IMG/VR virus record: IMGVR_UViG_3300042566_002057
Coordinates: 1-64,000 of that record
Strand: one strand, 5' to 3'
Origin: a virus
Length of the DNA: 64,000 nucleotides
The notes under the pieces were generated by a model. It was given only the letters and a program-made list of their open reading frames with translations, was not told the origin of the DNA and made no database searches. Positions 7,674 through 24,189 of the stretch are shown here, in pieces. How positions within the stretch are numbered: the first letter of the stretch is position 1; each line of letters starts with the position of its first letter. The position numbers and the translations under genes were made by a program.

Positions 7674-7709
7674 AACCCTCGAACCTAAAGTTTGAGGGTT
7701 TTTTGTTTT
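7674..7709 (+). terminator. attenuator terminator 3
   Basis: AACCCTCGAAC-CTAAA-GTTTGAGGGTT plus T-tract. Confidence 0.9.
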
Positions 7710-7713
7710 ATAT

Positions 7714-7787
7714 AGTTCCATAGTTTAATTGGATAAAACACCGGATTACGGCTCCGGAGATTGAGGGTTCGAGTCCTTCTGGAACTA
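7714..7787 (+). tRNA. tRNA-Arg(ACG)
   Basis: CCGGA-TTACGGC-TCCGG. Confidence 0.9.
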
Positions 7788-7793
7788 CAAATT

Positions 7794-7880
7794 GGAAAAG
7801 TAAGAGCAGTTGGTCTAAGCTCGGCGGTCTTGAAAACCGTAGGCCCTAGTGGTGTGTGAGTTCGAGTCTCACCTTTTCCG
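7794..7880 (+). tRNA. tRNA-Ser(TGA)
   Basis: GCGGT-CTTGAAA-ACCGT; long variable arm; G73. Confidence 0.88.
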
Positions 7881-7885
7881 CAAAA

Positions 7886-7969
7886 GGAGAATAAACTAAT
7901 CTGGTGATTAGGACCGCCTGCTAAGCGAGTCGTACTTTATAGTATGGGGTTCAATTCCTCTGTTCTCCG
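7886..7969 (+). tRNA. tRNA-Ser(GCT)
   Basis: CTGCTAA loop; long variable arm; G73. Confidence 0.82.
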
Positions 7970-7975
7970 CTATTT

Positions 7976-8061
7976 GGAGAGTAAACTGATGAGGTCATCA
8001 GCCACGCCTGGAAAGCGTTGGGTGCGTTCAATCGTATGGGTTTCGAGTATTCTGCTCTCCG
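7976..8061 (+). tRNA. tRNA-Ser(GGA)
   Basis: CACGC-CTGGAAA-GCGTT; long variable arm; weak T-stem. Confidence 0.78.
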
Positions 8062-8070
8062 CAAAAATGA

Positions 8071-11000: not shown

Positions 11001-11895
11001 TAGTTGAATAAGTAGTAGTATCTCTTACTAAAATACCATTTTTCCCAGTTAGGTGAGTAGATGAACTAGTTGATGAAAATATACCAATAATTGAGTTTGA
11101 TAAAAATGGTTTGTCTGTTGCTAAAATAACATCATTTGCACTATTAAACTCTAATAAGCCATATCCAGCACCTGATTTAATTCTATCACCATCTTTAATA
11201 ACTAACTGAGGAACATAAACTGTATTATTCTCATCTGCTATCATATCACTTCCTCCAATAATAACTGAGTTTGCTATTCCACCATATGTTGTTGAATTAT
11301 AGCTATTTAAATGTAAACTTGATTTATTAAGAGAACCAATGTCATATGTTGATTCTGATTTTATTATATCAATTTGACCAGAAAGTAAAGATGTATCATT
11401 TAGTGTCACATAATATGAATTCGGTGTGATATTTTGTACACTATAAATGGTTAAGTCTCCTACTCGATTGTTAATACTAATTGAATTTAAGTCAATAGTT
11501 GAAGCAGTATTACTTGTTAAATCAGTCATACTTATTGAAATTTCACCAAGACTTTGCTTGATACTATTTAAACCAAAGTAAGTACCATCATTAGTACTTA
11601 TCTCTAAGGCAGATGTTCCAAAATTAATTTGATTATTGCTTCCAGATGTAATAAGTGAGGTATTAGAACCCATCTCAATAGAGTAGGTTCCAGTGGATGA
11701 ACCCACTTTAAGAACATCTAAAAGTGATGGAGTCGCTGAGATTCCTGCAGTTCCACCAACACCGATTTGTATTATTGTACCGGAAGTATCTTTTTGTTTA
11801 AGAAAGCCATCTAAATCATAACCTATTATCCAACCCTGTGAAGGAGTTGCTGCGGTTGTCATCGAAACGGTAGATCCAAAATTTATAGTGCTCAT
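8071..11895 (-). CDS. long repetitive tail-fibre-like structural protein
   Basis: 1274 aa, Ser/Thr/Gly/Asn rich; five YxxNFTTYSLVTKGYVD-type repeats alternating with NGL...IGLGGTL; upstream AATATATA. Confidence 0.7.
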   Translation of the reverse strand: MSTINFGSTVSMTTAATPSQGWIIGYDLDGFLKQKDTSGTIIQIGVGGTAGISATPSLLDVLKVGSSTGTYSIEMGSNTSLITSGSNNQINFGTSALEISTNDGTYFGLNSIKQSLGEISISMTDLTSNTASTIDLNSISINNRVGDLTIYSVQNITPNSYYVTLNDTSLLSGQIDIIKSESTYDIGSLNKSSLHLNSYNSTTYGGIANSVIIGGSDMIADENNTVYVPQLVIKDGDRIKSGAGYGLLEFNSANDVILATDKPFLSNSIIGIFSSTSSSTHLTGKNGILVRDTTTYSTTPAVQSPITSISSESAFIESGIYNSVIIGGVNLSATESNTVYLGNSVNINNAYKLPNVDGSLSEVLLTDGAGQAYWGTAPASTTPTLEQVLTQGNDSLGQNIVMGTGTSLVSGNGGGRIYLDEGFTSGNVVISTNNGSISETYIDMNTSDLIIYSPSVFNLNFGNSTVISGNLEGLRYAFDYSATFVTYSLIDKNYVDSNFLSQVDNTSIELNGSNQVSLKSIIDGNRQFNDSVTILGDLAILGTTSTIYTENLVVEDNFITLNGTYSGPAIDAGIEVNLGDGTYSKIFWSSSSQYWNAGLSGSEQTIVSDAMNGLSQTDNKIGLGGVLSLNTIIYGQGYDLEISDAYRITMTASNNIDNRVISSDYYSQVYLQQADYQNIVATIDNATYSRTRINIGTINIESVGNNGVSSITVHNETQPIGDGSSDNNILVTDVSNKGIVYVGDYSPNFTTYSLVTKGYVDEKQQYVNNGLTFSSGYIGLGGTLSGPVIIDGYDNNVYFNDFSRFSVTASAFIVNTVFSPSTNTSAQWNDGDNYYTRVDDPSGTYSIVDITPGVLNIYNFDGVGYSGINFHSQDQPLSDGSTNNRIIVADDISQKGIVYRSDYTANFTTYSLVTKGYVDSISSTTPGNGLSYVSSGVIGLGGTLSQDTTVQVDNKNLHFLGASRISLTSSVYFSSRSQFLNSSTLLIHGPNTLRFLAHDISGGLLIYGAPGVTGSGLVGEMDTIKIESRVGTYSSIISTYAGSQAISDGSINNTLIVVDNINNKGIVYDGNYVGNFTTYSLVTKGYVDSQKVQGENGLTQSISGNIELGGTLTSQVFIEGDLKNFYINNLGRFSVTASVFIDNKVYNNLNESRIYNFGTAIDLKVTYDSSTYSRVFVDNQSTSIFAFDGSLSTGILITNIDQNINDGSSDNRLLVTDANQKGLVYTDDYTANFSTYSLVTKGYVDSAVSSGWTGTFSADGQIVTVTGGIITGVV

Positions 11896-11997
11896 CTATC
11901 TGAAATTATTGTTAGAGTATATATTATTTTACAAAGTGTCTTTTATTTTTAACTTTGCAAAAATTTGAGATATAATTTAAAAACACTCACTTAAATT

Positions 11998-12375
11998 ATG
12001 AAATTAGCCTTAATCGCACACGATGGTAAAAAAGCAGATATGGTTGCCTTTGTTATGAAAAGATTAGAATTCTTCAATCATAAAGAGGTAGAGATTGTAG
12101 CGACTGGAACAACCGGTGGTATGATTCAACGAGCCGGAGTGGATAAAGTTAAAACCGTACTTTCAGGACCACTTGGTGGTGACGCTGAAATAGGTTCGAT
12201 GGTTGCTAATGGAGAACTAGATGCTGTTATTTTCTTTAGAGATCCTTTAGACAAACACCCACATGATGTTGATATATCTATGTTAATGAGACTTTGTGAT
12301 GTTCATAATGTTCCATTAGCAACTAATTATAGGAGTGGTGATATTATGGTGAAATATTTTAGAAAAAAGATATGA
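11998..12375 (+). CDS. mgsA: methylglyoxal synthase
   Basis: ALIAHDGKK, ATGTTG, SGPLGGD, FFRDPL, PHDVD and LATN motifs. Confidence 0.97.
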   Translation: MKLALIAHDGKKADMVAFVMKRLEFFNHKEVEIVATGTTGGMIQRAGVDKVKTVLSGPLGGDAEIGSMVANGELDAVIFFRDPLDKHPHDVDISMLMRLCDVHNVPLATNYRSGDIMVKYFRKKI

Positions 12376-12623
12376 CTTGTGGTCAGACAATAGAATTTCT
12401 GACTAGGATATTACAGACTTCTATTGAAAAAAATTTATACGAGTTATCAAATACAATTATCACGATTCAACAACGACTTCTTGAAAAGTATAAATTAGAA
12501 GATATAGTTGAGTTATCTTACTTCACTGAAGTTTTACAGAAATCAATCGGAGGTTTATCTCATGAGGGTAAAGAAATACTATTACCAATTTTAAGAGAAC
12601 TGAAATTAAATACAATTCTTTAA
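12372..12623 (+). CDS. hypothetical protein (C-terminal LRELKLNTIL motif)
   Basis: ORF overlaps the mgsA stop codon. Confidence 0.65.
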   Translation: MTCGQTIEFLTRILQTSIEKNLYELSNTIITIQQRLLEKYKLEDIVELSYFTEVLQKSIGGLSHEGKEILLPILRELKLNTIL

Positions 12624-12991
12624 TACTTAGGTAATTTCATATCAGTTGTGATTTCAATTCTAAAGTTAAATCCAGTATCTTCATCACTTCCATATTTTAC
12701 TTCAGCGTCATAACCCATCTCACCACCAAATGTTGTTGGTTTTGGACCATTCTGAAGTTGTCTACGTCTTTCTTCTTCTCTTCTTCTTTTTTCTTCTTCC
12801 TGAGCAACCATTTGCTCAAATGTTAAGTTATTTTGAGGATTCTGATTATGTTGTATTTCTTCTTGTCTAGTGGAAAATTGAGTAGCATCATATCCATATT
12901 TTCTTAACAGTTCTTCAGCTTCCCAACCGGTAACTTCTCTTTCTGATTCAATGTGTTGTTGATCAACTATTCTTGCTTGTGGTCTTTCCAT
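12620..12991 (-). CDS. hypothetical protein
   Basis: 123 aa ORF. Confidence 0.7.
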   Translation of the reverse strand: MERPQARIVDQQHIESEREVTGWEAEELLRKYGYDATQFSTRQEEIQHNQNPQNNLTFEQMVAQEEEKRRREEERRRQLQNGPKPTTFGGEMGYDAEVKYGSDEDTGFNFRIEITTDMKLPKY

Positions 12992-13008
12992 GATTACATA
13001 TTATTTTT

Positions 13009-13476
13009 TCACAATCTTTTCATTTGTATTGCATTTCCAGCTTGGCTAATACTAAATCCAACCGGTGAGTTCATATCTAAATACCTCTTATATATTTTAG
13101 TTCTAGATGTTACATAGTCTTTTTCTAAGTCTTTTGCTAAACCAACAAAGAAAATGTTTTTAGCCCAATAACATCTTTTCGTAAAGTCATTTAAGATATC
13201 ACCAAATACAGTTTCTAATACTTTATAAGGATTTACATTTACAATCTTACTAACTGAATAAGAACCTTCGTCTTCTACAAAATAAAGTAACTCATAAACA
13301 GTACTTAATTCACCAACTTTATTAACTGGTATGTTTTTAAATTCAACTAAGTAGTTATTATTTTCTGAATCTAAAAATTCATACTTATACATAAATGGAT
13401 CATCTGATATTAAATTAAATCCATAAGAGTCAACTTTTTCATTTATAAAGTTATCATATAATGATATTTTTCTCAT
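13009..13476 (-). CDS. hypothetical protein (N-terminal ISLYDNFINE motif)
   Basis: 155 aa ORF; upstream AATATATA. Confidence 0.7.
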   Translation of the reverse strand: MRKISLYDNFINEKVDSYGFNLISDDPFMYKYEFLDSENNNYLVEFKNIPVNKVGELSTVYELLYFVEDEGSYSVSKIVNVNPYKVLETVFGDILNDFTKRCYWAKNIFFVGLAKDLEKDYVTSRTKIYKRYLDMNSPVGFSISQAGNAIQMKRL

Positions 13477-13560
13477 AAATCTATATATTAAATTAAAAAA
13501 AAGTATTAAAATCCAAAAACAGAGAAAACTTTTTGTTATATATACATATAATTAGAACAT

Positions 13561-13633
13561 CGCGGGGTGGAGCAGTCGGTAGCTCGCTAGGCTCATAACC
13601 TAGAGGTCACACGTTCGAGTCGTGTCCCCGCTA
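13561..13633 (+). tRNA. tRNA-fMet(CAT)
   Basis: CGCGGGGTGGAGCAG start; C1 mismatch; CTCATAA loop. Confidence 0.92.
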
Positions 13634-13700
13634 CTAAAAAAATAAAAATAAATTTGGTAGATTAAAAAAGTCTACTTATATTTGTAAAACAATTAAAGAA

Positions 13701-13778
13701 ATGATGACAACAGTTGCAACATATTATTATGAGGTCGAGAGCAAAAGCTCCGTCAGACGAGTATTAGTTATGTCGTAA
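13701..13778 (+). CDS. attenuator leader peptide 4, MMTTVATYYYEVESKSSVRRVLVMS (Tyr/Glu)
   Basis: TAT TAT TAT GAG GTC GAG; GTCAGAC 13752-13758 pairs with GTCTGAC of the terminator; promoter TTTG 13653 / TATATTTG 13677. Confidence 0.88.
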   Translation: MMTTVATYYYEVESKSSVRRVLVMS

Positions 13779-13800
13779 TTGAAAAATATTATATAACTTA

Positions 13801-13836
13801 AACCCAGTCTGACTTCAGATTGGGTTTTTTGTTTTT
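13801..13836 (+). terminator. attenuator terminator 4
   Basis: AACCCAGTCTGA-CT-TCAGATTGGGTT plus T-tract. Confidence 0.9.
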
Positions 13837-13846
13837 AAATTAATTT

Positions 13847-13914
13847 GGGATGGGTTATGGTGACGGCCGGATCTGTAAAATCCTAGCAGGTGAGTTCGAG
13901 TCTCACGCATCCCA
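13847..13914 (+). tRNA. tRNA-Tyr(GTA)-like, reduced D-arm and short variable region
   Basis: GGAT-CTGTAAA-ATCC; GTGAG-TTCGAGT-CTCAC T-arm; only about 68 nt. Confidence 0.6.
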
Positions 13915-13919
13915 CAAAT

Positions 13920-13953
13920 GGTCCTGTCGACTAATGGTTAGGTCAACACCCTT
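13920..13953 (+). pseudogene. 5' half of a tRNA-Glu-like gene ending in the anticodon loop
   Basis: GGTCCTGTCGACTAATGGTTAGGTCAACACCCTT followed by an A-rich promoter region. Confidence 0.7.
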
Positions 13954-14019
13954 AAAAAATAAAAACAAAAAAGATATTGTGGATTAAAAAAGTTTAATTA
14001 TCTTTGTAAAACAAAAGAC

Positions 14020-14091
14020 GGTCCCATCGTCTAACGGTTAGGACATTAGGTTTTCATCCTAAAAATCGGAGTTCGATTCTCCGTGGGACTA
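14020..14091 (+). tRNA. tRNA-Glu(TTC)
   Basis: TTAGG-TTTTCAT-CCTAA. Confidence 0.92.
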
Positions 14092-14186
14092 CAAATGTCG
14101 GAGTAATTAACCGATACTAACAAGAAGATGTATCATATATCGCAGTGAGATTTGGTACCAGTAATTTCTGATATGTCTACTTGAAT

Positions 14187-14265
14187 AACTGCTTATGGTG
14201 TAAATTGGTTTGCACGTCGGTCACTAAGGCCGAAGGGTTATAGGTTCGAGTCCTATGGGTAGTTC
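14187..14265 (+). tRNA. atypical tRNA with CTA anticodon (amber suppressor candidate)
   Basis: TCGGT-CACTAAG-GCCGA; 7-bp D-stem GTGTAAA/TTTGCAC; canonical T-arm. Confidence 0.6.
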
Positions 14266-14270
14266 AACAT

Positions 14271-14353
14271 TGGAAGGTGGCAGAGTGGTTAAATGCGGCG
14301 GACTGTAAATCCGCTCTCTTACGAGTACGGGGGTTCGAATCCCTCTCTTCCAA
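14271..14353 (+). tRNA. tRNA-Tyr(GTA)
   Basis: GCGGA-CTGTAAA-TCCGC; long variable arm. Confidence 0.93.
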
Positions 14354-14448
14354 CAAATAATATAATACTGTATCATGATGTTCCATGATTGAAAGTTTAT
14401 AATAGGGAAAAGAAAACTTTTTATATATACAATAATATAAATAATACA

Positions 14449-14526
14449 ATGAAGAATTTACTTAACATATCAGCATTTATAGCGAACGGCGCGGGGAGTG
14501 ACCGTAGTTGGCTGGTTGTTATGTAA
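14449..14526 (+). CDS. attenuator leader peptide 5, MKNLLNISAFIANGAGSDRSWLVVM (Ile-ATA/Ala/Gly)
   Basis: ATA TCA GCA TTT ATA GCG AAC GGC GCG GGG; TGGCTGG 14509-14515 pairs with CCAGTCA of the terminator. Confidence 0.85.
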   Translation: MKNLLNISAFIANGAGSDRSWLVVM

Positions 14527-14553
14527 ATTTCAGATATTGAAACTAACATACTT

Positions 14554-14582
14554 AACCCAGTCAGAAATGATTGGGTTTTTTT
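14554..14582 (+). terminator. attenuator terminator 5
   Basis: AACCCAGTCA-GAAA-TGATTGGGTT plus T-tract. Confidence 0.9.
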
Positions 14583-14586
14583 ATTT

Positions 14587-14667
14587 CGGCAAGTACCGTT
14601 GGAATCTTATACATTCTATACACGTAGCGGGAAGTTGAAAACGTGGGTTCGAATCCCACCTTGCCGA
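14587..14667 (+). tRNA. non-canonical tRNA-Ile(TAT)-like RNA lacking a normal D-arm
   Basis: CGGCAAG/CTTGCCG acceptor; TGGAAT-CTTATAC-ATTCTA arm; canonical T-arm. Confidence 0.6.
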
Positions 14668-14679
14668 CAAATGATACAA

Positions 14680-14753
14680 GCGGGTATCGTATAATGGTTT
14701 AATTACACCGGCCTTCCAAGTCGGTGATGTCGGTTCGATTCCGGTTACCCGCA
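14680..14753 (+). tRNA. tRNA-Gly(TCC)
   Basis: CCGGC-CTTCCAA-GTCGG. Confidence 0.9.
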
Positions 14754-14758
14754 CAAAT

Positions 14759-14834
14759 GGGCTAGCATGTTCCAAGGCTTCGGCGACTTACCCTTGCAAG
14801 GTAGGTGTGGTGGGTTCGATTCCCATCTGGTCCA
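14759..14834 (+). tRNA. tRNA-Ala(TGC)
   Basis: TTACC-CTTGCAA-GGTAG; G3-U70; irregular D-arm. Confidence 0.8.
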
Positions 14835-14855
14835 CAAAAAAAATAAATATGAGGA

Positions 14856-14981
14856 ATGAAAGTAGTAATTAAAGGCGAATTTAAATCAAGTAAAGTAAAT
14901 CTAAGAAATTCAGAAGAAATTAAATTAGATGTTTATTTAGAAAGACTAATTAAAAAGATTAAAAAGAGAATTAAAAAATAA
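14856..14981 (+). CDS. small basic hypothetical protein (41 aa) inside the tRNA cluster
   Basis: MKVVIKGEFKSSKVNLRNSEEIKLDVYLERLIKKIKKRIKK fills the tRNA spacer. Confidence 0.4.
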   Translation: MKVVIKGEFKSSKVNLRNSEEIKLDVYLERLIKKIKKRIKK

Positions 14982-14986
14982 AATAA

Positions 14987-15062
<76 letters not shown>

Positions 15063-15104
15063 AAATGCCGGGTGATCCACCGTTGAATCACGGTGCCGGC
15101 TCCA

Positions 15105-15178
15105 GGGGGATTAGCTCATTTGGCTAGAGCGCTTGTCTGGCAGACAAGAGGTGACGAGTTCAATCCTCGTATCCTCCA
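15105..15178 (+). tRNA. tRNA-Ala(GGC)
   Basis: CTTGT-CTGGCAG-ACAAG; G3-U70. Confidence 0.92.
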
Positions 15179-15180
15179 CA

Positions 15181-15215
15181 AAAAAGTCTAGTTATTTATT
15201 TAACTAGACTTTTTT
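15181..15215 (+). terminator. intrinsic terminator after the Gly/Ala cluster
   Basis: AAAAAGTCTAGTTA...TAACTAGACTTTTTT. Confidence 0.75.
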
Positions 15216-15228
15216 AATATATAACATT

Positions 15229-15726
15229 ATGAAATATCTTAGAAGATTTAATGAAAATATTAGCATGTACGATCCTGAATGGAAGGAGTCTTTACCTGAA
15301 ACTTTTTCAATATTAAAAGGAGAGGATGATGGTGTACATAAACACGTTTATAAGAAAGGTAATATTATGTTAAATTCTGATATGGTCCAGATAACTTATT
15401 ATAATGAAGACTGGGGTATACCAGATACTTTAGAATTCGATATTCATACAGTTAGAGACACGCAAACTGGTGACTTGAGACTAGATATTGACATTACATA
15501 TGGTAATGAAGTTGCTTGTGAATTTTCAATTGACAAAACAAATGGAGTTAGAGTAATCCAAGACACCACTTATCATTCCAAGTTTGACCCATCTAATACT
15601 GTATTTGCTTTTACTGATGATAGTCTTAAGCAATTTGTGGAATTCTTAAACAGATTTAACACTGGTATAAAAGTAACCACTCATGATTTGAGATTTTTAG
15701 ACGGTTATGATAATTATCAACATTAA
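15229..15726 (+). CDS. hypothetical protein (MKYLRRFNE motif); paralog of the N-terminal domain of 33836..35218
   Basis: Shared EFDIH...DITYG...EF.I...SK(F/Y)D...FN.GI segments. Confidence 0.75.
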   Translation: MKYLRRFNENISMYDPEWKESLPETFSILKGEDDGVHKHVYKKGNIMLNSDMVQITYYNEDWGIPDTLEFDIHTVRDTQTGDLRLDIDITYGNEVACEFSIDKTNGVRVIQDTTYHSKFDPSNTVFAFTDDSLKQFVEFLNRFNTGIKVTTHDLRFLDGYDNYQH

Positions 15727-15814
15727 TTTGACTAATTGATTTTTTTATTTATATTTGTTATTGAGGAAACTTATTTTCAATTTTCTCGTATATTTATAAA
15801 TACAAACACATTTT

Positions 15815-16468
15815 ATGCTTAGTAACGAACAAGTTCAACAAATAAAACAAATTATCGAATCAGATCCAAGATTTGTAACAAAAATCAATGAGGCTATTTC
15901 TTATACTGGTAAAGAAAGTGGTCATTCGCACGCTTCTCCAATGGAAGATATGATTCGTGAAATTCTTATTGATAAATTAGGAGCTAAAAAATCATCCAAA
16001 GACCGTTCACTTGCTGATATCTACTTAAATGATAATTTAATAAATGTTAAGTTTGGTTCTCCAAAAATCCAACCGAATGGTCGACCTAAATATGGTCAAC
16101 CAAATATGTGTGCTATGAGAAGAATTATGAAAGAGTTTTATTATGACTCTACTATTGATTCTTATTACATTATCAAAGTTAATCTAAAAAATGGTGAATA
16201 TACTTTACATGTCTTTGATATGTTAGATTATATTGACTATCTTACTTGGAATTCGGGTACTGGTCAAATTATGTTGAAAGAAAATGACTTTTATAATATA
16301 ATAAATACTTATGTACCAAGTTTAAATATTGAAGAGAAAAAGACTAAAATCAAAGATTTATATGATTTTGGATGTGAGAAGCATATTCTTCTTAGAATAA
16401 ATCAATATATGTCACAGTCTAATAATTCTGAAAGATTTAAAACTCAACTACGAAAACTGTTAGAGTGA
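15815..16468 (+). CDS. putative type II restriction endonuclease (PD-(D/E)XK-like)
   Basis: E...ADIYLNDNLINVKFG catalytic-like pattern; convergent with a methyltransferase. Confidence 0.55.
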   Translation: MLSNEQVQQIKQIIESDPRFVTKINEAISYTGKESGHSHASPMEDMIREILIDKLGAKKSSKDRSLADIYLNDNLINVKFGSPKIQPNGRPKYGQPNMCAMRRIMKEFYYDSTIDSYYIIKVNLKNGEYTLHVFDMLDYIDYLTWNSGTGQIMLKENDFYNIINTYVPSLNIEEKKTKIKDLYDFGCEKHILLRINQYMSQSNNSERFKTQLRKLLE

Positions 16469-16495
16469 AGAAGCCACCGCTTGTCGGTGGTTTTT

Positions 16496-18097
16496 TTATA
16501 CTTTATAAAGTTCTTCAATATTTAAGTTAAAGTCTTCTGGTGTAATTCCATTATTTTTCTTATAGTTAATACTTTCCTTTACTAACTGAATTGCTTTCTG
16601 TTTGTTTTCTTCACTTACCCAGAACGGATAAGGTAATCTTTCGATATCTTTACTTTGTATATTTTTAGTGTGATTAATAACACTTTTTAATATCTCATTA
16701 CATTTAGATGTAAGTAACCACCCAATAATAAAAAGTAGTTCTGATTTATTAACACCTTCTTTTAATACAGCTATCGGAGCTCCTGAGTCTAAAATATAAC
16801 CAGATGGTAAGTATCTTGCTTTTATGGATGATGAAATAAGTTGCCAAGTAAGACCTTCTCTTTTAAAATAAGGTTTACCACCAACACCGTGTAAGTACCA
16901 GTTACCATTTTTCTTAAAAGTTATACAAGCATCGCCATCATCTTTCCAGAATATCACAGTATTTGGTTTACTATAAAGAGTCTCATTAGTCGCTTTATTA
17001 TAATAACAATAATCACTATTTGGAATAGTTATTACAGACGGAGTTTCTTTCTTAGTTATTGAAATATTTCTACGAGTTGATCCAGATTTTTCTAAATCCT
17101 GATACTCTTTTATTTTACCTAATGATAACTTATTATTTCTAGCTTTTGATATTTCTCTTTCTAATGTAATTGGATCATCAAAGAATGTAAAGTCATACTC
17201 TTCAATAATTGTATTGTCTTCTCTGATATCCCTTAAAAAAAGTTCGTTTTTACCAACAGTCATTCCACTTGTTCCAATTAAGTAACTTTGTAGTTTTTCT
17301 CCAACAAAATACTTTACATATTCTTGTTGAATATACCAAGAAAAATTACTTGTTAGAATCATATTATCATAAGGTATTTCAACGCTATCTAATAATATGT
17401 GGTTTTGATGATTTGATTTATGATGTGTTAAAACTATCATTGGATAATCAGTTTCTTCTGAGAAGTTTAATAATCTTTCTATTTGATTATAACCTTGTTC
17501 ATAAAGAAATAATCTTAAACCAGTCATTGTTTTGATTGTAAGAAATGTATCAGATGATATAAAAACTAATTTACCATCTGGTTTAAGACATTCAATTGAT
17601 TTAATCATAAAGAATGAGTAAGTCTCTTTTTTAATTTTGTGACCGTTTCTTATACCATACTTTTTATCCATTTCATCTTGATACTTTGGATCGATTGTTC
17701 CTCCAAATGGTGGATTTCCTATGATATAATCAAAACCATCTACTGTAGGATTGTAAAGAAAGTAATCTGAAAGTAATAAGTTATGAGTTTCTGGTAAGAA
17801 TCCATACTTTTCTTTTATGTTTTCAAGACACTCGTTGTAAAGTTCAGAATCATATTCTACACCATAAAGATTATTATTAAGAATCTTGGTAAGTTTTTCT
17901 TCTACTGTACCTTCATAAATTTCTAAAAATTCATCTATTATACTGATAATAAAATTACCACATCCAAAAGAAGGTTCTAATACTTTATTTGATTTAGTGA
18001 AAGTGTATCTTTTAACAATTGACCGACATTTGTCAATTGGTGTCATAAATTGACCTAATTGTTTCTTCTTTGTTCTCTGTGTTTTAACTTCTGCCAT
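16496..18097 (-). CDS. N6-adenine DNA methyltransferase (gamma class, Eco57I/TaqI-like)
   Basis: GQFMTP, VLEPSFGCGNF (motif I), IIGNPPF (motif IV). Confidence 0.92.
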   Translation of the reverse strand: MAEVKTQRTKKKQLGQFMTPIDKCRSIVKRYTFTKSNKVLEPSFGCGNFIISIIDEFLEIYEGTVEEKLTKILNNNLYGVEYDSELYNECLENIKEKYGFLPETHNLLLSDYFLYNPTVDGFDYIIGNPPFGGTIDPKYQDEMDKKYGIRNGHKIKKETYSFFMIKSIECLKPDGKLVFISSDTFLTIKTMTGLRLFLYEQGYNQIERLLNFSEETDYPMIVLTHHKSNHQNHILLDSVEIPYDNMILTSNFSWYIQQEYVKYFVGEKLQSYLIGTSGMTVGKNELFLRDIREDNTIIEEYDFTFFDDPITLEREISKARNNKLSLGKIKEYQDLEKSGSTRRNISITKKETPSVITIPNSDYCYYNKATNETLYSKPNTVIFWKDDGDACITFKKNGNWYLHGVGGKPYFKREGLTWQLISSSIKARYLPSGYILDSGAPIAVLKEGVNKSELLFIIGWLLTSKCNEILKSVINHTKNIQSKDIERLPYPFWVSEENKQKAIQLVKESINYKKNNGITPEDFNLNIEELYKV

Positions 18098-18200
18098 CTA
18101 AGAAATAGTTTTTAATTATATCGGAAATTTGATAATATGTTTAATTTGTTTATTATCGGAAGTATATACATTTATATATATGTAAAAATAAGTATAGATT

Positions 18201-18371
18201 ATGCCAGCAAAAGATAAAATGTTTTCTTTAAGAATTCCTGAAAAACTTCTGGAAGAATACAGACAATTCTGTGAAGAAAACTCAATTAATATATCTAAAA
18301 GACTTAGAAAGTTTATGGAAAGAGATTTAGAGGTGTGGTATCAGAAGAAAAAATCTAATATCGGAAAATAA
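18201..18371 (+). CDS. ribbon-helix-helix DNA-binding protein (56 aa)
   Basis: MPAKDKMFSLRIPEKLLEEYRQFCEENSINISKRLRKFM pattern; divergent from the MTase; below the ORF-track cutoff. Confidence 0.75.
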   Translation: MPAKDKMFSLRIPEKLLEEYRQFCEENSINISKRLRKFMERDLEVWYQKKKSNIGK

Positions 18372-18395
18372 TATATACAAAAAATAGAATAAACA

Positions 18396-19805
18396 ATGAG
18401 ATATATTAAAGGCTACTCAAAATTTATAAATGAATCAAAAAGAGAAATTGAAAAAAATGCTTTAATTGTTGAAAAGCAAGTACTTAATGAGTTTTCCTCT
18501 GACTTTTGGTCATTGTGTTTAAGATCTAAAATATTCACTAATGAGGAAAAATCTTATATCGAAAATAACTTGATTGGTCAAAATGTTTCTTTGGTAACTG
18601 AAGAGTGGGAATGGTTAGATAAAGCTGTAGATTGGGCTAAAGACAAAGGAGAGAAAATGTTAAACTTTGTCGGTGATAAAATTAAAGCTGTTAAAAATGG
18701 TCTTAAAGAATTTGTCAGCTCAATGGTTGCTTTTGCTAAGAAATTATTTATTTCTGGATTAAATGGTGTTTTATCACAAGCTGCTAAGTTCAAACAAAAA
18801 ATTTCAGGAGACGGTAAAGTAAAAAAACAAATTGAGGAACTAGATCCTCAAAAGTCTAAAAATGAAATCGAAGATTTAAAGAAGACCTTTCAATTTTGGG
18901 CACCTGGTAAAACAGCAGCTGAAGCAAAACCATCAGCTGATGTAGCAGCAGGTCAAATTGAGGCTAAACTAAAAACAGCAGAAGGTGAAGCTGTTTCATC
19001 AACTGAGAAAAACTTAACAGAAGCTGAAGAAGAAGCAAAGAATGAATCAGTATCAACAATTATCTATTCTACTTCAGATGATATTTTAGAAAGTTTTTAT
19101 AATCTTTCATTAATAAAAGAAGCTGAAGAAGCTCCAGAAGGTGGTGAAGAAAAAAAGACAACTGGTCAAAAATGTATTGATTGGATTTTAGGATTCTTAG
19201 GTCAAGAGAAAATGGATCCAGATGCTAAAACAGGAAAGAAATTATTCTGGTGGGGTAAATTATTCTTAAAAATTCTTTCTACTTGTTTAAGTCCTATTCT
19301 AAAAGTAGTTGAAGTTTTAGTTAAAACTGGTGCTAATTTAGCACTTAAAGGTGTTTCAATGATTACAGGAGCTTTAGGTGGTCCCGGTGCTTTTGAATTT
19401 GCTTTACTTGGTGGTTTATGTGGTGGAATTATCGGTATAATATATGATTCACTTATGTTATTTGGTGATGCTGGAGCATCAACTGGTGCTGATACAATGG
19501 GTATGGTTAAAAAGTGGTTAGCACACGCTATAAATGAATCACTTGAATTATTTCCATCTTATAAAACATTAAAGTATATCTTTGCTGGATTTTGTGCTGG
19601 AATGACACTTTGGCATGTTATTGAAGAAATCAAACATTTAATGCATGCTGGTCACGGAGAACACAAAGAAGGCGAAGCGAAGGAAGGAGAAGCTGTAAAA
19701 CCAGGAGAAAAACCTGTGGTAACAAAACCTGGAGAGAAACCTGAACCTGTTAAACCAGGAGAAAAACCAGCAACTGGAGGAGCACCTGCACCAGCAGCGG
19801 CATAA
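18396..19805 (+). CDS. hypothetical protein with hydrophobic segments and a KPGEKP-rich tail (probable virion protein)
   Basis: MRYIKGYSKFINE N-terminal motif; upstream AATATATA. Confidence 0.75.
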   Translation: MRYIKGYSKFINESKREIEKNALIVEKQVLNEFSSDFWSLCLRSKIFTNEEKSYIENNLIGQNVSLVTEEWEWLDKAVDWAKDKGEKMLNFVGDKIKAVKNGLKEFVSSMVAFAKKLFISGLNGVLSQAAKFKQKISGDGKVKKQIEELDPQKSKNEIEDLKKTFQFWAPGKTAAEAKPSADVAAGQIEAKLKTAEGEAVSSTEKNLTEAEEEAKNESVSTIIYSTSDDILESFYNLSLIKEAEEAPEGGEEKKTTGQKCIDWILGFLGQEKMDPDAKTGKKLFWWGKLFLKILSTCLSPILKVVEVLVKTGANLALKGVSMITGALGGPGAFEFALLGGLCGGIIGIIYDSLMLFGDAGASTGADTMGMVKKWLAHAINESLELFPSYKTLKYIFAGFCAGMTLWHVIEEIKHLMHAGHGEHKEGEAKEGEAVKPGEKPVVTKPGEKPEPVKPGEKPATGGAPAPAAA

Positions 19806-19918
19806 AAAATTAAAAATATTTTAATTAAATTTGGTAGAATTAAAACTTTTATCTAATTTTGTATAAAATAATGACAAAAACCTCGAAAGAGAGTAATAAC
19901 TTTTAATATATAACAACA

Positions 19919-20032
19919 ATGAGAACAAATAATACAAATATGATGAACCTGACACTCAATGTGGTGAATATTACGTTATGTAATATTAGACCGTCTGAGG
20001 GTTCCTTCCTATTTAGAAAATTTGTCTCGTAA
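19919..20032 (+). CDS. attenuator leader peptide 6, MRTNNTNMMNLTLNVVNITLCNIRPSEGSFLFRKFVS
   Basis: Codons 1-24 use only M,R,T,N,L,V,I,C, the amino acids of the 14 downstream tRNAs; TCTGAGGGTTC 19994-20004 pairs with the terminator 5' arm. Confidence 0.92.
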   Translation: MRTNNTNMMNLTLNVVNITLCNIRPSEGSFLFRKFVS

Positions 20033-20063
20033 AATGTGACGTATTTATAACTAAATATAAAAA

Positions 20064-20095
20064 GAACCCTCAGATAAAAATCTGAGGGTTTTTTT
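20064..20095 (+). terminator. attenuator terminator 6
   Basis: GAACCCTCAGAT-AAAA-ATCTGAGGGTTT plus T-tract. Confidence 0.92.
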
Positions 20096-20110
20096 ATGTC
20101 TAAAAAATTA

Positions 20111-20195
20111 CGGTAGGTACCCGAGCGGTCTTCAGGGACCAGTCTGATACACTGGGTGAGAAATCACAACGTGGGTTCAAATCCCACCCTACCGA
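20111..20195 (+). tRNA. tRNA-Ile(GAT) with long variable arm
   Basis: CCAGT-CTGATAC-ACTGG; variable hairpin GTGA-GAAA-TCAC. Confidence 0.82.
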
Positions 20196-20203
20196 CAAAA
20201 TAT

Positions 20204-20275
20204 GGCTCCTTCGTCCAATGGATAGGACGTCGCTCTTCTAAAGCGAAGATACTGGTTCGAATCCAGTAGGGGCTA
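20204..20275 (+). tRNA. tRNA-Arg(TCT)
   Basis: TCGCT-CTTCTAA-AGCGA. Confidence 0.9.
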
Positions 20276-20285
20276 CAAATAAAAT

Positions 20286-20367
20286 GCCGAGGTGGTGGAA
20301 TGGTAGACACACCAGTTTAAGAAGCTGGTATCCTCAGGGTGTGAGAGTTCGAGTCTCTCCCTCGGTA
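20286..20367 (+). tRNA. tRNA-Leu(AAG)
   Basis: CCAGT-TTAAGAA-GCTGG; Leu-type body with long variable arm. Confidence 0.85.
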
Positions 20368-20373
20368 CAAAAT

Positions 20374-20462
20374 GGGCTTGTAGCTGATTTGGTTTTAGCT
20401 GGTGACTGTTAATCACTGTATGAAAAATTGAAATAAAGTAGGTTCGAATCCTACCTGGCCCG
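20374..20462 (+). tRNA. tRNA-Asn(GTT) with long variable region
   Basis: GGTGA-CTGTTAA-TCACT; G73. Confidence 0.78.
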
Positions 20463-20468
20463 CAAATC

Positions 20469-20539
20469 GCCCCGATGGCGTAAAGGTAGCGTATCTCTTT
20501 TACATGGAGAAGGCAGTGGTTCGATACCACTTCGGGGTA
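20469..20539 (+). tRNA. tRNA-Val(TAC)
   Basis: TCTCT-TTTACAT-GGAGA. Confidence 0.85.
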
Positions 20540-20546
20540 CTAAAAT

Positions 20547-20619
20547 TGTCAGTTAGCTCATTTGGTAGAGCACTTGTCTGATACACAAGAGGTGGTGGGA
20601 TCGTAACCCGCACTGACAA
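20547..20619 (+). tRNA. tRNA-Ile(GAT)
   Basis: CTTGT-CTGATAC-ACAAG; ATCGTAA T-loop. Confidence 0.87.
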
Positions 20620-20625
20620 CAACAA

Positions 20626-20708
20626 GCACCTGTGGTCGAGTGGTGTCGTAAGACGAGAGGCACTGGATTGCAAACCCAGTCACGGGGGTTCGAATCCCTC
20701 CAGGTGCT
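20626..20708 (+). tRNA. tRNA-Cys(GCA) with extra hairpin in the D-loop
   Basis: TTGCAAA loop; U73; GTC-GTAA-GAC insert. Confidence 0.82.
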
Positions 20709-20716
20709 CAAAATAT

Positions 20717-20788
20717 GCTGATGTCGTATAATGGTTATTACATTGCCTTTGTAACGCAAATATGTGGGTTCGACTCCCTCCATCAGCT
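20717..20788 (+). tRNA. tRNA-Thr(TGT)
   Basis: GCTGATG/CATCAGC acceptor; TTTGTAA loop. Confidence 0.82.
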
Positions 20789-20794
20789 CTAAAA

Positions 20795-20866
20795 TGTCTC
20801 GTAGTTTAATGGGAAAACGTTACCTTGACATGGTAAAGAGAGTGGGATCGTTACCCACCGAGACAA
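20795..20866 (+). tRNA. tRNA-Val(GAC)
   Basis: TTACC-TTGACAT-GGTAA. Confidence 0.85.
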
Positions 20867-20871
20867 CAAAA

Positions 20872-20990
20872 AATAATGGATGGTGATTGCAAGGGTTACT
20901 TCGTTTAATGACTAAACAATTGACTTTTAATCAATCTACACTGGTTCGATCCCAGTAGTATATCACTCTTCAAGGCTTTCCTCCGTTATT
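20872..20990 (+). ncRNA. tRNA-Lys(TTT)-like core embedded in a structured element, no normal acceptor end
   Basis: D-like arm, ATTGA-CTTTTAA-TCAAT and ACTGG-TTCGATC-CCAGT, flanked by TGATTGCAAGGGTTACTTCG and ACTCTTCAAGGCTTTCCTCC. Confidence 0.6.
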
Positions 20991-20996
20991 TTATTT

Positions 20997-21069
20997 GCCT
21001 CTATGACGTAATTGGCAGTCGTATGCGCCTTAGAAGCGTAGTGTCCGAGTTCGAATCTCGGTAGAGGTA
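20997..21069 (+). tRNA. tRNA-Leu(TAG), short variable loop
   Basis: TGCGC-CTTAGAA-GCGTA. Confidence 0.85.
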
Positions 21070-21083
21070 CAAACAAAACGAAT

Positions 21084-21156
21084 GCCCCGGTGACGTAATT
21101 GGCAGTCGTATCCGGCTTAAAATCGGAGTGTGCGGGTTCGAATCCCGTCTGGGGTA
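21084..21156 (+). tRNA. tRNA-Leu(TAA), short variable loop
   Basis: TCCGG-CTTAAAA-TCGGA. Confidence 0.85.
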
Positions 21157-21164
21157 CAAAATAA

Positions 21165-21237
21165 GCAGTTATCGTATAATCGGTGATTACACGTCCTTGG
21201 TAAGGATGAGACCCCAGTTCGATCCTGGGTATCTGCT
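21165..21237 (+). tRNA. tRNA-Thr(GGT)
   Basis: CGTCC-TTGGTAA-GGATG. Confidence 0.87.
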
Positions 21238-21243
21238 CTAAAT

Positions 21244-21313
21244 GCCGCGGCTTAGTGGAAAAGGACATTGGCTCATATCCGATGTTAAGTGAGTTCGAAC
21301 CTCATACGCGGTA
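21244..21313 (+). tRNA. tRNA-Met(CAT) (elongator Met or Ile2)
   Basis: ATTGG-CTCATAT-CCGAT; reduced D-arm. Confidence 0.7.
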
Positions 21314-21323
21314 CTAATAAAAA

Positions 21324-21396
21324 GCCTCTATGACGTAATTGGTAGTCGTATTTGTCTCAAAAGCAAAGTGTCCGGATTCGAATTCCGGTAGAGGTA
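21324..21396 (+). tRNA. tRNA-Leu(CAA), short variable loop
   Basis: TTTGT-CTCAAAA-GCAAA; paralog of 20997..21069. Confidence 0.85.
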
Positions 21397-22092
21397 CTAA
21401 GAAAGTATATAACTTTCAAGTTTATCAAAGTACTCTAAATCTACAAGATAGTATTCGTCACATATAAAAGTAATCTCTTGTAAATTGACTTTATTTATAT
21501 TACCCTCTTGATATCCATTGACTATGTAGTTTACATCACTTAGAACTTCATCAGTAATTTCTATATTATTGTATTCTTTATACCAATCAAAATTATCTCT
21601 TAATTCGGTAAAAAGATCATCTATATTTGGATTCCAAAAATATCTAAATCCATTTTTAGGAAAAAACATATATGTGTTTTTTAGTCTGTCTGGTCCAGCA
21701 TAATCAGATGCAATAGAAAGATTTTTAGTAGCAAACACACCACGACTTCTAAGTGGTATTCCAAATTTTCTTTCTAGACCTTTATTTATCAGTTCATTTA
21801 TTTCCCAATTTGTGTCTTTTGCTTTTCTTTTTTCGATTGGTTCTATCTTCCAAACTCCATCCAATATATTTGTTTGATTAACAGGTTCTTTATAATCCAT
21901 TTTATTTCTAAACATTTCCGCCTCCCATGCTGTGTCAGGACTAGTTAAAAATCCTCTATATAAAGAACTTATTCTATTAGTTTTTAGAAGATTTAAAAAT
22001 TCACCACATTCAGATTCTAAGATATCTACCATCTTCTCAAATGTATTATCATTATTTTCTGTAAAAATTCTAAATTCTTTGAGGTATTTCAT
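21397..22092 (-). CDS. hypothetical protein (MKYLKEFRIFTE motif)
   Basis: 231 aa; LYRG and FAT motifs loosely resemble ADP-ribosyltransferase folds; upstream AATATATA. Confidence 0.7.
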   Translation of the reverse strand: MKYLKEFRIFTENNDNTFEKMVDILESECGEFLNLLKTNRISSLYRGFLTSPDTAWEAEMFRNKMDYKEPVNQTNILDGVWKIEPIEKRKAKDTNWEINELINKGLERKFGIPLRSRGVFATKNLSIASDYAGPDRLKNTYMFFPKNGFRYFWNPNIDDLFTELRDNFDWYKEYNNIEITDEVLSDVNYIVNGYQEGNINKVNLQEITFICDEYYLVDLEYFDKLESYILS

Positions 22093-22158
22093 ATTTGTAT
22101 ATATTAATTTAACAAAAAATAATTTGATAGTCTAAGGTAATATAACTATATTTGTCTT

Positions 22159-23616
22159 ATGAAAAATATTGTTACAAGAATTGCGCCTTCTCCTACAGGA
22201 CCATTTGCTCATATTGGAAATGTTAGAACCTTACTTTATAACTACTTTCTTGCTAAAAGACACGGTGGTAAATTCATTGTTCGTTTAGAAGATACAGATC
22301 GTGACCGTTATACACCATCGTTTTTAACATATTTCAAAGATATGTGTGATTGGCTTGGAATAGTTCCAGATGCTTCTTACTGGAATCCTGATCCAACTAT
22401 TGGTTCTTTTACACAATCAGAAAGAGATTACTCTAAATATGTTAAATTCTTACTAGATAATGGTCTGGCTTATTACGCTTTTGACACTAAGGATGATTTA
22501 GATTCTCTTAAATCAAAAGGTCTTAAATATGACGCGACTACTCGTATGTCTATGAATAACTCTTTGACTAATCCATCAACTGATTTGATGTTACAAAGTG
22601 GTGTTCCCTATGTTATTCGTTTCGCAGTAACTCCTGATGTTGATATCACTTTTGATGATGCTATTTTAGGAACTATTACTATAAACACAAATACACTTGA
22701 TGATAAAGTTCTTATTAAGTCTAATGGTATTGGTTCTTATCATCTTTGTAATGTTTGCGACGACCACGATATGGGAGTTACTCATGTTCTTAGAGGTAAC
22801 GAGTGGGTAAATTCTACACCTTTTCATATTCTAATGTATAATGCTCTTGGATGGGATGTTCCAACATTTGCTCACTTACCATTAATTATGAATCCGGATG
22901 GTAAGGGAAAGTTATCAAAAAGAACAGCAATGAAGTATGGTATTCCAATTGCTCCAATCGGATATACCGATGATTCAGGTACTTATGTTCCTGGTTGGAA
23001 GGATTTAGGATATGATCCTAAGGCATTTATGAACGCACTTGCTCTTATCGGTTGGAACCCAGGAGACGATGTTGAAATTATGTCAATGAGTGGTATGATT
23101 AATTCATTCTCTTTAGATAGAGTTAATAAATCAGGTGCTCGTTTTGATATGGATAAAGCAAAGTGGATTAACGCTTATCATTTAAGAATGACCTCAAACT
23201 CTTGTCTTAAACCTTTTATCAATATAAAAGACGATAGATACTCTGATGATAAGTTAGATATGATTATTAATTTGGCTAAAGAAAGATCAAACTTCAAGTC
23301 TGACTTAAATGTAATTGTTGATTTATTTTACAATAATCCTATCATAACAGATGTTAAAAAGTTAGATGATAATTTTGTAAAAGTATTTTCTAAATTTATT
23401 TTATCTGATGTTGATTACACTAGTTCTGACTCTATCAAAGATTCTATATTGTCTGTGTGTAATGATGTTGATGTGAAAATTGGAAAAGTAATGCCTGGAT
23501 TAAGAATGGCTTTAGTTGGTGGAATTTCTGGACCAGACTTACCAACAACTATGTTTATTTTAGGTAAAGATGAAGTTATCAAAAGAATTTCAACTTCTTT
23601 ACCAGTACTAAACTAA
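22159..23616 (+). CDS. gltX: glutamyl-tRNA synthetase
   Basis: RIAPSPTG, HIGN, RLEDTD, THVLRG and KLSKR motifs. Confidence 0.97.
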   Translation: MKNIVTRIAPSPTGPFAHIGNVRTLLYNYFLAKRHGGKFIVRLEDTDRDRYTPSFLTYFKDMCDWLGIVPDASYWNPDPTIGSFTQSERDYSKYVKFLLDNGLAYYAFDTKDDLDSLKSKGLKYDATTRMSMNNSLTNPSTDLMLQSGVPYVIRFAVTPDVDITFDDAILGTITINTNTLDDKVLIKSNGIGSYHLCNVCDDHDMGVTHVLRGNEWVNSTPFHILMYNALGWDVPTFAHLPLIMNPDGKGKLSKRTAMKYGIPIAPIGYTDDSGTYVPGWKDLGYDPKAFMNALALIGWNPGDDVEIMSMSGMINSFSLDRVNKSGARFDMDKAKWINAYHLRMTSNSCLKPFINIKDDRYSDDKLDMIINLAKERSNFKSDLNVIVDLFYNNPIITDVKKLDDNFVKVFSKFILSDVDYTSSDSIKDSILSVCNDVDVKIGKVMPGLRMALVGGISGPDLPTTMFILGKDEVIKRISTSLPVLN

Positions 23617-24189
23617 CTACTTTATTAATGTAACATGACCGGTGATCATTTTAAGTTCACCGGTTTCTTTCATGTCTATTAACATAGTCCAGACATAAAC
23701 TCCATCTTGAACCAAACTACCATTGTGAGTACCATCCCATTTATCGTTCGCGTTGTGAGATTCCCAAATCACATCACCCCATCTATTATAAATTAATAAC
23801 TCAAAATTTTCTATTGAGATACCACTTGTTAATATTGGACCCCATGTTTGATTAAATTCATTCCCATCTGGAGTAAAACTGTTTGGTACCCAATATATGA
23901 GTGGATCACATTCGGTTACTACTATTTGTAAGACTTGAGGTACACTTTCACACCCAATATCATTATATCCAATAGCAACAAGTTCATATTGACCTGGATC
24001 GCTAAATATAATATCTGTGCTACTTCCTTCATCTATTAAACTACCATTTAAGAACCAAGATATTGTACCACTTACATCTAATGATGTAGAATAAGTAAAT
24101 ACTTTTTCATACTCACAAATCTCAAACTCTTGTTGTGAGTATGATATAAAGTAACTGAATAAAAATAATATCAAAAATAAGTGTCTCAT
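23617..24189 (-). CDS. secreted protein with gliding-motility-associated (T9SS type B) C-terminal domain
   Basis: Signal peptide; VPNSFTPDGNEFN...IYNRWG...WDG...GVYVW...GHVTLIK. Confidence 0.88.
   Translation of the reverse strand: MRHLFLILFLFSYFISYSQQEFEICEYEKVFTYSTSLDVSGTISWFLNGSLIDEGSSTDIIFSDPGQYELVAIGYNDIGCESVPQVLQIVVTECDPLIYWVPNSFTPDGNEFNQTWGPILTSGISIENFELLIYNRWGDVIWESHNANDKWDGTHNGSLVQDGVYVWTMLIDMKETGELKMITGHVTLIK

Follow-up and report, generated by a model that had tools for sequence, protein, structure and literature searches.

The window analysed here comprises the first 64,000 nucleotides (64 kb) of a virus contig of 151,950 bp and 31% G+C (IMG/VR record IMGVR_UViG_3300042566_002057). 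The element in question lies around positions 19919 to 21397, where a small open reading frame (ORF) and an intrinsic terminator are interposed between a promoter of host type and an array of transfer RNA (tRNA) genes, an arrangement that recalls a leader-peptide attenuator. The features of the locus are as follows:

19830-19861, plus strand: host-type (Bacteroidota) promoter (TTTG, 20 nt, TAATTTTG), supported by an excess of the pattern and kept in a five-way alignment (A1)
19901-19913, plus strand: TTTTAATATATAA box, 6 nt before the ATG, invariant in alignment A1
19919-20032, plus strand: leader ORF of 37 codons, with homologues in contigs L122, L004 (LR745206), L003 (LR756502.1) and L108 that show in-frame indels only
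19922-19990, plus strand: sensor run, codons 2-24, all M/R/T/N/L/V/I/C, defined by cognate codons, run-length rank and the stall model
19945-19958, plus strand: segment 1, an interrupted copy of arm B (GAACC..CTCA) able to pair with arm A, and pairing with 19996-20004 in the unconstrained full-length fold
19967-19987, plus strand: 8-bp hairpin within the sensor (AATATTAC / GTAATATT), present in all folds, kept in L122 and L004 and partly in L003
19994-20004, plus strand: arm A, the 5' arm of the putative antiterminator (TCTGAGGGTTC, codons 26-29), forming a 12-bp duplex with arm B (-21.1 kcal/mol)
20030-20032, plus strand: stop codon of the leader, at the apex of the folded A:B hairpin and 31 nt before arm B
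20064-20074, plus strand: arm B (GAACCCTCAGA), which pairs with A in the antiterminator or with C in the terminator, from folds and terminator scan
20081-20096, plus strand: arm C followed by eight T, which with arm B makes an intrinsic terminator (terminator scan: 12-bp stem, 4-nt loop)
20111-21397, plus strand: tRNA array of 12 firm tRNAs, probable Cys and Met tRNAs and one degenerate element (ARAGORN, Rfam)

The leader ORF occupies the interval between the promoter and the first tRNA (20111), and its ATG, frame and stop are kept in the four homologues. An earlier reading of this DNA, made from its letters without database searches (hereafter, the sequence-only reading), had noticed that the first 24 codons use only M, R, T, N, L, V, I and C, which we confirm for the ORF at 19919-20032. 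These eight amino acids make up 0.41 of the residues in long ORFs; the chance of such a restricted run, which the same reading had proposed to compute, is 1.4e-9 for 23 consecutive codons (~4e-4 expected per genome). The 24-codon run is the longest of its kind in the six frames of the contig (27 codons if the three in-frame codons 5' of the ATG are included; runner-up 16). Under strict wobble rules the 12 firm tRNAs downstream read 20 of the 23 codons at positions 2-24, and all 23 once Cys and Met are counted (enrichment of cognate codons in the focal leader, binomial P = 6e-5). Furthermore, the AGA and ATT codons of the leader pair off with Arg(TCT) and Ile(GAT) of its own block. In the 5' untranslated region (UTR) of the leader we observed a small hairpin (19881-19893, CTC-GAAA-GAG), which has a counterpart in LR745206 (~46661-46676, CTCC-TAAAA-GGGAG) and shows a compensatory change between the two.

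The 12 firm tRNAs, returned by both ARAGORN (default) and Rfam, are Ile x2, Arg(TCT), Leu x4, Asn, Val x2 and Thr x2, to which Met(CAT) (21241-21316) and a Cys candidate (20626-20709) are added at relaxed thresholds only. The Cys candidate carries an insertion, and ARAGORN forces another anticodon on it; its UUGCAAA loop, read by hand, gives GCA, and in the close relative L122 the matching position is occupied by a canonical Cys(GCA). The sequence-only reading had equated the sensor set with exactly 14 tRNAs, an equation that stands for the 12 firm genes, is less secure for Cys and Met, and overlooked a fifteenth element. This one (20893-20966), tRNA-like and degenerate, scores 42.9 bits in Rfam over model positions 4-67, has a UUU anticodon and a poor acceptor stem, and is probably a decaying Lys tRNA gene. 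The genes of the focal array are tRNAs only, the classical targets of attenuators (biosynthesis enzymes, transporters, synthetases) being absent from it. As a separate observation, many tRNA genes of this phage and of its relatives measure 83-127 nt, with insertions of 10-55 nt in the D, anticodon or variable regions (7228-7316, 7408-7535, 20111-20196, 20374-20463, 20626-20709, 35760-35843 and 35850-35938; in one of these, a long extra arm accompanies an Ile GAT anticodon), and may represent short introns, insertions or novel tRNA variants.

Behind the sensor run, the transcript can adopt two alternative pairings. Arm A is the exact reverse complement of arm B, as the sequence-only reading had stated for 19994-20004 and 20064-20074, and the intervening pairs that it listed (TATTTAG/CTAAATA and GTC.CGT/ATG.GAC, with the stop codon at the apex) reappear when the RNA is folded up to 20075, giving one extended hairpin. 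It missed the terminator at 20064-20091, in which B pairs with 20081-20091 ahead of a T8 run that ends 15 nt before the first tRNA, and its model was therefore left without an actual switch. As 20064-20074 is at the same time the 5' arm of this terminator, 19994-20004 takes the place of an antiterminator arm, and the transcript can form either A:B or B:C but not both. In folding calculations, the nascent RNA before C is made adopts A:B (the leader as far as B folds at -37.7 kcal/mol), and B:C alone forms once the ORF is masked. A modelled ribosome held at codons 1-21 leaves the 5' arm of the terminator ~100% sequestered; sequestration falls at codons 22-25 and is 0 from codon 25, placing the switch point at the end of the restricted-codon run. 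Segment 1 is weak in this module (B is 0.97 paired with A when the ribosome is absent), and the hairpin within the sensor could possibly act as an RNA polymerase pause hairpin. Taken together, the -21.1 kcal/mol duplex, the switch under stalling and the covariation of the two arms (described below) constitute computational evidence that A:B is an antiterminator.

Five further modules of this layout were found in the window, each consisting of a leader, a strong terminator 21-27 nt further on, and then tRNAs:

6416-6570, plus strand: module with a leader rich in R, H, K, F, S and W, terminator at 6542-6570, before Phe/His/Phe/Trp, Lys x3, Arg and Ser tRNAs
7576-7700, plus strand: internal module with a Ser/Arg-rich leader, terminator at 7674-7700, before Arg(ACG) and Ser tRNAs
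13701-13827, plus strand: module with a YYYEVE sensor, terminator at 13800-13827, before Tyr/Glu tRNAs
14449-14577, plus strand: module with an Ile(ATA)/Ala/Gly sensor, terminator at 14554-14577, before Ile(TAT), Gly and Ala tRNAs
35310-35459, plus strand: module with a PQPQDQD sensor, terminator at 35429-35459, before Gln-Pro-Asp-Gln-Pro-Asp tRNAs

All six modules have intrinsic terminators with G+C-rich stems of 10-12 bp and 6-8 T, in all six the stall model places the structural switch at the end of the cognate run, and the six tRNA blocks jointly cover all 20 amino acids. Without translation, four of the five further modules are predicted to terminate by default, with a B pairing of 0.02-0.41, and so resemble the trp leader; the Gln/Pro/Asp leader is intermediate (0.49). 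Matching extends to isoacceptors, with CGC codons for Arg at 7576 facing Arg(ACG) and ATA codons for Ile at 14449 facing Ile(TAT). The host-type promoter box of the focal module is also found upstream of the leaders at 6416, 13701 and 35310, and the TTTTAATATATAA box lies 5-7 nt 5' of the ATGs of the leader at 6416 (6399-6411), the focal leader (19901-19913) and the leader at 35310 (35293-35305). Similar boxes (at about 7555 and 14425) precede the internal leaders at 7576 and 14449, which lack a host-type promoter; the box may be a second, phage-specific promoter or a translation-initiation context.

Two kinds of tRNA gene depart from this layout. The Met(CAT) genes at 13561-13634 and 43732-43805 have their own promoters and neither leader nor terminator; in the former, a 1:72 mismatch suggests an initiator tRNA, for which the missing leader would make sense because a translated leader cannot sense the initiator. 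Directly 5' of Lys tRNA genes stand mini-ORFs of 9-11 codons with K at every second position (7064-7129 in the window, the mini-ORF itself being 7064-7099; 2137-2200 in LR745206; 18591-18650 in LR756502.1). Right after its stop, each has a stable hairpin that lacks a T run; this variant is conserved, and the antiterminator/terminator model leaves it unexplained.

The distribution of the design was surveyed by running a module finder on LR745206, LR756502 and 20 IMG/VR loci. The pattern used on IMG/VR was A+T-rich and loose (~100 of 118 loci were unrelated), and the 20 loci with tRNA clusters were kept, one of them (L110) without a module. The survey returned 49 modules on 19 contigs (the window contig, the two LR genomes and 16 from IMG/VR), 43 of which lie in contigs other than that of the window. 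The homologues of the focal leader (nearly identical in L122) show in-frame indels, and their substitutions stay within its amino-acid set. Furthermore, the composition of the leaders follows that of the arrays: in relatives, Gln-only arrays are preceded by poly-Q leaders, Ser/Arg arrays by S/R leaders and Pro/Asp arrays by P/D(/Q) leaders. Other contigs split the focal tRNA set into an Arg/Leu block followed by an Asn/Val/Ile/Cys/Thr block; there, the upstream leader (facing Arg/Leu and all that lies behind) contains L, R, N, T, V and C, and the internal leader, which faces Asn, Val, Ile, Cys and Thr only, contains neither L nor R. In LR756502.1 the focal-type terminator is separated from the first tRNA by a 67-codon ORF (46347-46550), and the attenuator there would thus also gate a small protein gene.

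The correspondence between leaders and tRNAs was assessed by binomial tests against the phage's own codon usage (with a wobble rule that let anticodon TAT read ATG, removed in the permutation tests), which combine to a Fisher P of 3.4e-12 for the cognate codons of the six window modules. When leaders and tRNA sets of these modules are exchanged, the true assignment alone (1/720) reaches the observed score; across the 49 modules the observed score is 368 against 114 +/- 18 in permuted sets, and 0 of 100,000 permutations reach it, although this result overstates independence since the modules are homologous and not independent samples. The signal is specific to the reading frame, with cognate triplets in frames 0/+1/+2 numbering 54/13/14 of 103 in the window and 391/102/108 of 894 in all modules. 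At the level of isoacceptors, 23 of 25 Arg codons fit the Arg anticodon of their block (12.7 expected), as do 32 of 38 Ile codons (19.9 expected). Moreover, sensor codons are skewed towards G/C-ending codons that are rare in the phage (22 of 59 against 9.6 expected), as in classical attenuators. The own tRNA set gives the row maximum in 7 of 49 modules, a measure that is uninformative: every leader opens with Thr/Asn/Ile filler codons, and these are read by the large focal-type tRNA set.

Covariation was evaluated by direct duplex calculation for each module, since alignment A1 (MAFFT) misaligns the terminator arm of L108. The A:B duplex with the own terminator arm has a mean energy of -9.95 kcal/mol against -5.93 in shuffled leaders (Wilcoxon 3e-12), and in L108 both A and B are altered with complementarity kept. 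Covarying pairs of arm A and arm B are the following:

arm A TGAGGGTT, arm B AACCCTCA
arm A GGTTCGGGTT, arm B AACCCGAACC
arm A TGGGTTTT, arm B AAAACCCA
arm A TTCGGGT, arm B ACCCGAA

While arm A itself changes together with the terminator, the residues that it encodes (PSEGS, AGSGC, PGF, TSGK) show no conservation. The distance from stop codon to terminator is 17-33 nt (median 25) over the 49 modules.

On the strength of the observed sequence elements, alternative pairings, statistics, conservation and covariation, we consider that the element is a ribosome-mediated (leader-peptide) transcription attenuator gating a phage tRNA operon, a reading to which we assign a probability of roughly 0.85, and that the phage probably produces a given tRNA set only once its supply to the ribosomes is short. 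Transcription would start from the host-type promoter at 19830-19861, and the 37-codon leader would be translated as it is transcribed. Should charged tRNA be scarce for even one sensor codon (Arg AGA, Thr, Asn, Met, Leu, Val, Ile ATT or Cys), the ribosome would stall 5' of arm A, A would pair with the emerging B, the B:C terminator would be blocked, and the polymerase would enter the tRNA genes. During fast decoding, the ribosome would pass A and reach the stop codon at the apex, leaving B free to pair with C, and transcription would end at the T run. As the tRNAs produced would relieve slow decoding, the circuit would exert a negative feedback on tRNA supply, and as every one of the six blocks is headed by a leader that matches it, this feedback would be resolved block by block, with one circuit per block and the nested internal leaders serving distal sub-blocks. 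The trigger could be a poor fit between the host tRNA pool and the codon usage of the A+T-rich phage, the loss of host tRNAs during infection, or cleavage by a host anticodon nuclease. The OR gate over eight amino acids that the sequence-only reading had envisaged thereby gains computational support from the placement of the switch, the frame-specific cognate codons, the isoacceptor matches, the five paralogous modules and the 18 other contigs in which leader and tRNA content vary together.

Several points weigh against this interpretation. The untranslated focal transcript is predicted to be in the antiterminator state by default, unlike in trp-type superattenuation, and the terminator is the more stable fold at equilibrium, so that the model depends on co-transcriptional kinetics. 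A ribosome at the stop codon would leave arm A ~10 nt behind its footprint, and the exclusion of A:B by that ribosome would rest on sterics and timing. Two of the 14 array tRNAs (Cys and Met) are low-confidence calls, the focal array contains the UUU tRNA-like element and yet the sensor has no Lys codon, and Pro/Asp leaders of relatives retain Gln codons; to these is added the homology among modules mentioned above. Additional tRNA would not relieve amino-acid starvation, which makes the natural signal uncertain. Lastly, the translation of the leader, its coupling to transcription, the sign of the response and its physiological trigger are inferred.

Among the alternatives, the one that fares best, though we regard it as improbable, is that the leaders gauge translation capacity in general, any slowing of ribosomes (through a scarcity of ribosomes, host shut-off or antibiotics) opening the operon and codon composition carrying no information. 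Such a role would suit the focal leader, predicted to be read through by default when no ribosome is present, and an OR gate over eight amino acids (~41% of residues) is nearly a general sensor. Against it stand the six leaders of one genome, which match their own block and not the others, the matching at the isoacceptor level for Arg and Ile, and a leader composition that tracks gains, losses and splits of tRNA blocks across contigs.

We deem it very unlikely that the element works with the opposite sign or towards another output, that is, that stalling lowers tRNA output (for example through Rho or RNases) or that the hairpins are signals for the processing or stability of tRNA precursors. 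The hairpins of the Lys mini-ORFs (7064-7099 and its homologues) lack a T run and hence not every element here is a classical terminator, and tRNA precursors do require 5' processing. The six main modules, however, carry textbook intrinsic terminators, the position of arm A leaves A free only under a ribosome stalled upstream, and a positive feedback on shortage would be functionally senseless.

Even less credible is a T-box-like leader RNA, in which specifier triplets would be shown to uncharged tRNAs that stabilise the antiterminator without translation. The choice between antiterminator and terminator according to tRNA status is indeed the logic of T-boxes, which also read this status codon by codon 5' of translation-related genes, and the triplets match the anticodons of the downstream tRNAs. 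T-boxes, however, bind uncharged tRNA directly through one specifier and with no ribosome, whereas the signal in the window depends on the reading frame: the cognate triplets follow one another without a break in the frame of a conserved ATG and stop, and homologues differ by in-frame indels. Moreover, the folds show no evident stem I or NCCA-binding bulge, 23 different adjacent specifiers would be without precedent, and no match to the T-box family (RF00230) was found at the gathering level in the window or at E<=10 in 19800-20115. Finally, a coincidence of an ordinary gene-end terminator with a chance small ORF in an A+T-rich spacer, to which the preference of such DNA for Asn, Ile, Leu and Thr codons and a 24-codon boundary set after seeing the data might lend some colour, is refuted by the comparative data (a run unmatched in length elsewhere in the genome with ~4e-4 expected, five more modules in the window and 43 in other contigs, the permutation and frame tests, and the A/B covariation).

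Attenuation by leader peptides has been a textbook mechanism for 45 years. The enterobacterial ilvGMEDA leader senses Ile/Leu/Val and the thr leader Thr/Ile, and with these the modules of the window share a short (in the window, presumably translated) leader with codons for several amino acids, a hairpin arm common to two structures, the predicted read-through upon stalling and the use of rare sensor codons. They differ in that the ilv and thr leaders regulate biosynthetic enzymes, whereas the window elements precede tRNA genes whose output would act directly on the sensed quantity. The focal leader is also broader, as the sequence-only reading had put it, with eight amino acids against two or three, and the six leaders of the window partition all 20; the modules are viral, with predicted hosts in the phylum Bacteroidota, and have no sequence homology to the enterobacterial leaders. 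The pheM leader attenuator of the E. coli pheST operon (phenylalanyl-tRNA synthetase), which senses charged tRNA-Phe, is similar in that leader-peptide attenuation acts on a component of the translation apparatus; there, the target is a cellular synthetase protein gene and a single amino acid is sensed, whereas here the tRNAs themselves would be controlled. The general mechanism of the ilv and thr leaders is that given in PMC1183508.

Searches for described equivalents were negative within their scope. No Rfam leader family reached its gathering level in the window (His_leader RF00514, 24.1 bits vs 49; Phe_leader RF01859, 22.2 vs 55; trpB motif, 28.9 vs 59). We found no description of tRNA-operon attenuation in the literature searched, which left most subscription journals outside its scope and in which absence is not proof; the words 'leader' and 'attenuat' are absent from the text of Al-Shayeb et al. 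2020 (PMC7162821), as is 'attenuation' from that of the phiCbK genomics paper (PMC3556154). As far as we could find, the known uses of leader-peptide attenuation concern only the supply of amino acids and a few genes for synthetases, and new here would be the attenuation of tRNA genes themselves, in a virus, by six sensors that cover all 20 amino acids.

The same design (promoter, small ORF spelled in the amino acids of its block, terminator) was encountered in CcrColossus (NC_019406.1), a phiCbK-like Caulobacter phage with tRNA arrays at 59-69 kb, where the Val-Ile-Ile-Gln-Gln-Asn-Arg tRNAs are preceded by an annotated terminator and, ahead of it, by a leader rich in R, N, V, Q and I, and the Pro-Pro-Lys-Leu-Leu-His-Ala-Ser tRNAs by a leader composed of T, H, K, P, S, L and A. 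CcrColossus belongs to an unrelated phage lineage with a G+C-rich genome and a host of another phylum, and its modules have no sequence similarity to those of the window; the design would thus span unrelated phages of two host phyla, one of them represented by a laboratory model, which suggests wide spread or repeated invention. We tentatively raise the broader idea, to which we would give less than even odds, of a codon-resolved tRNA homeostat that doubles as a sensor for counter-defence, each block being induced only by stalls on its own codons and replacing exactly the missing tRNAs. Since the design recurs in unrelated lineages (huge phages of Bacteroidota and phiCbK-like phages of Caulobacter), such a homeostat could amount to a general and unrecognised principle of translation control in phages.

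If the attenuator reading is true, it would answer why and when large phages express many tRNAs, a question that dates from the discovery of tRNA-rich phage genomes, and would imply that phages gauge decoding speed codon by codon. It would also provide a compact natural part (~180 nt) that turns the shortage of chosen tRNAs into transcription, and a rule for annotation, according to which small ORFs before phage tRNA arrays are regulatory leaders whose composition predicts the content of the array. As the same design is present in cultivable Caulobacter phages, it is directly testable.

With regard to the genomic context, all tRNA genes of the contig lie inside the window (36-45, depending on the threshold). 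The focal array is adjoined by a Glu/Gln-tRNA-synthetase-like gene (22159-23616) with ~75% nucleotide identity to the uncultured huge phages LR745206.1 (634,780 bp) and LR756502.1 (642,428 bp). The largest genomes of Al-Shayeb et al. 2020 were assigned to the Mahaphage clade, with Bacteroidetes as predicted hosts, and tRNA-rich phages may carry up to 67 tRNAs per genome (PMC7162821). The pattern TTTG-N18-22-TAnnTTTG, which includes the Bacteroides -7 consensus TAnnTTTG (PMC4747536), has 17 matches against 3.6 expected, an excess consistent with a Bacteroidota host. DNA of this phage is contained in lake-water metagenomes, and six lake metatranscriptome runs contain parts of the region. In the four runs that were mapped onto 6000-23700, the contigs are short and of low depth, and none spans leader, terminator and tRNA. 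Elsewhere in the window (region 43810-44794), a GOLLD RNA (Rfam RF02032, 298.9 bits) was detected at 44297-44706, between the tRNA-Met gene at 43732-43805 and a tRNA-like gene at 44720-44794, and it is preceded by ~490 nt of structured-looking sequence and by tandem host-type promoters at 43380, 43570 and 43662.

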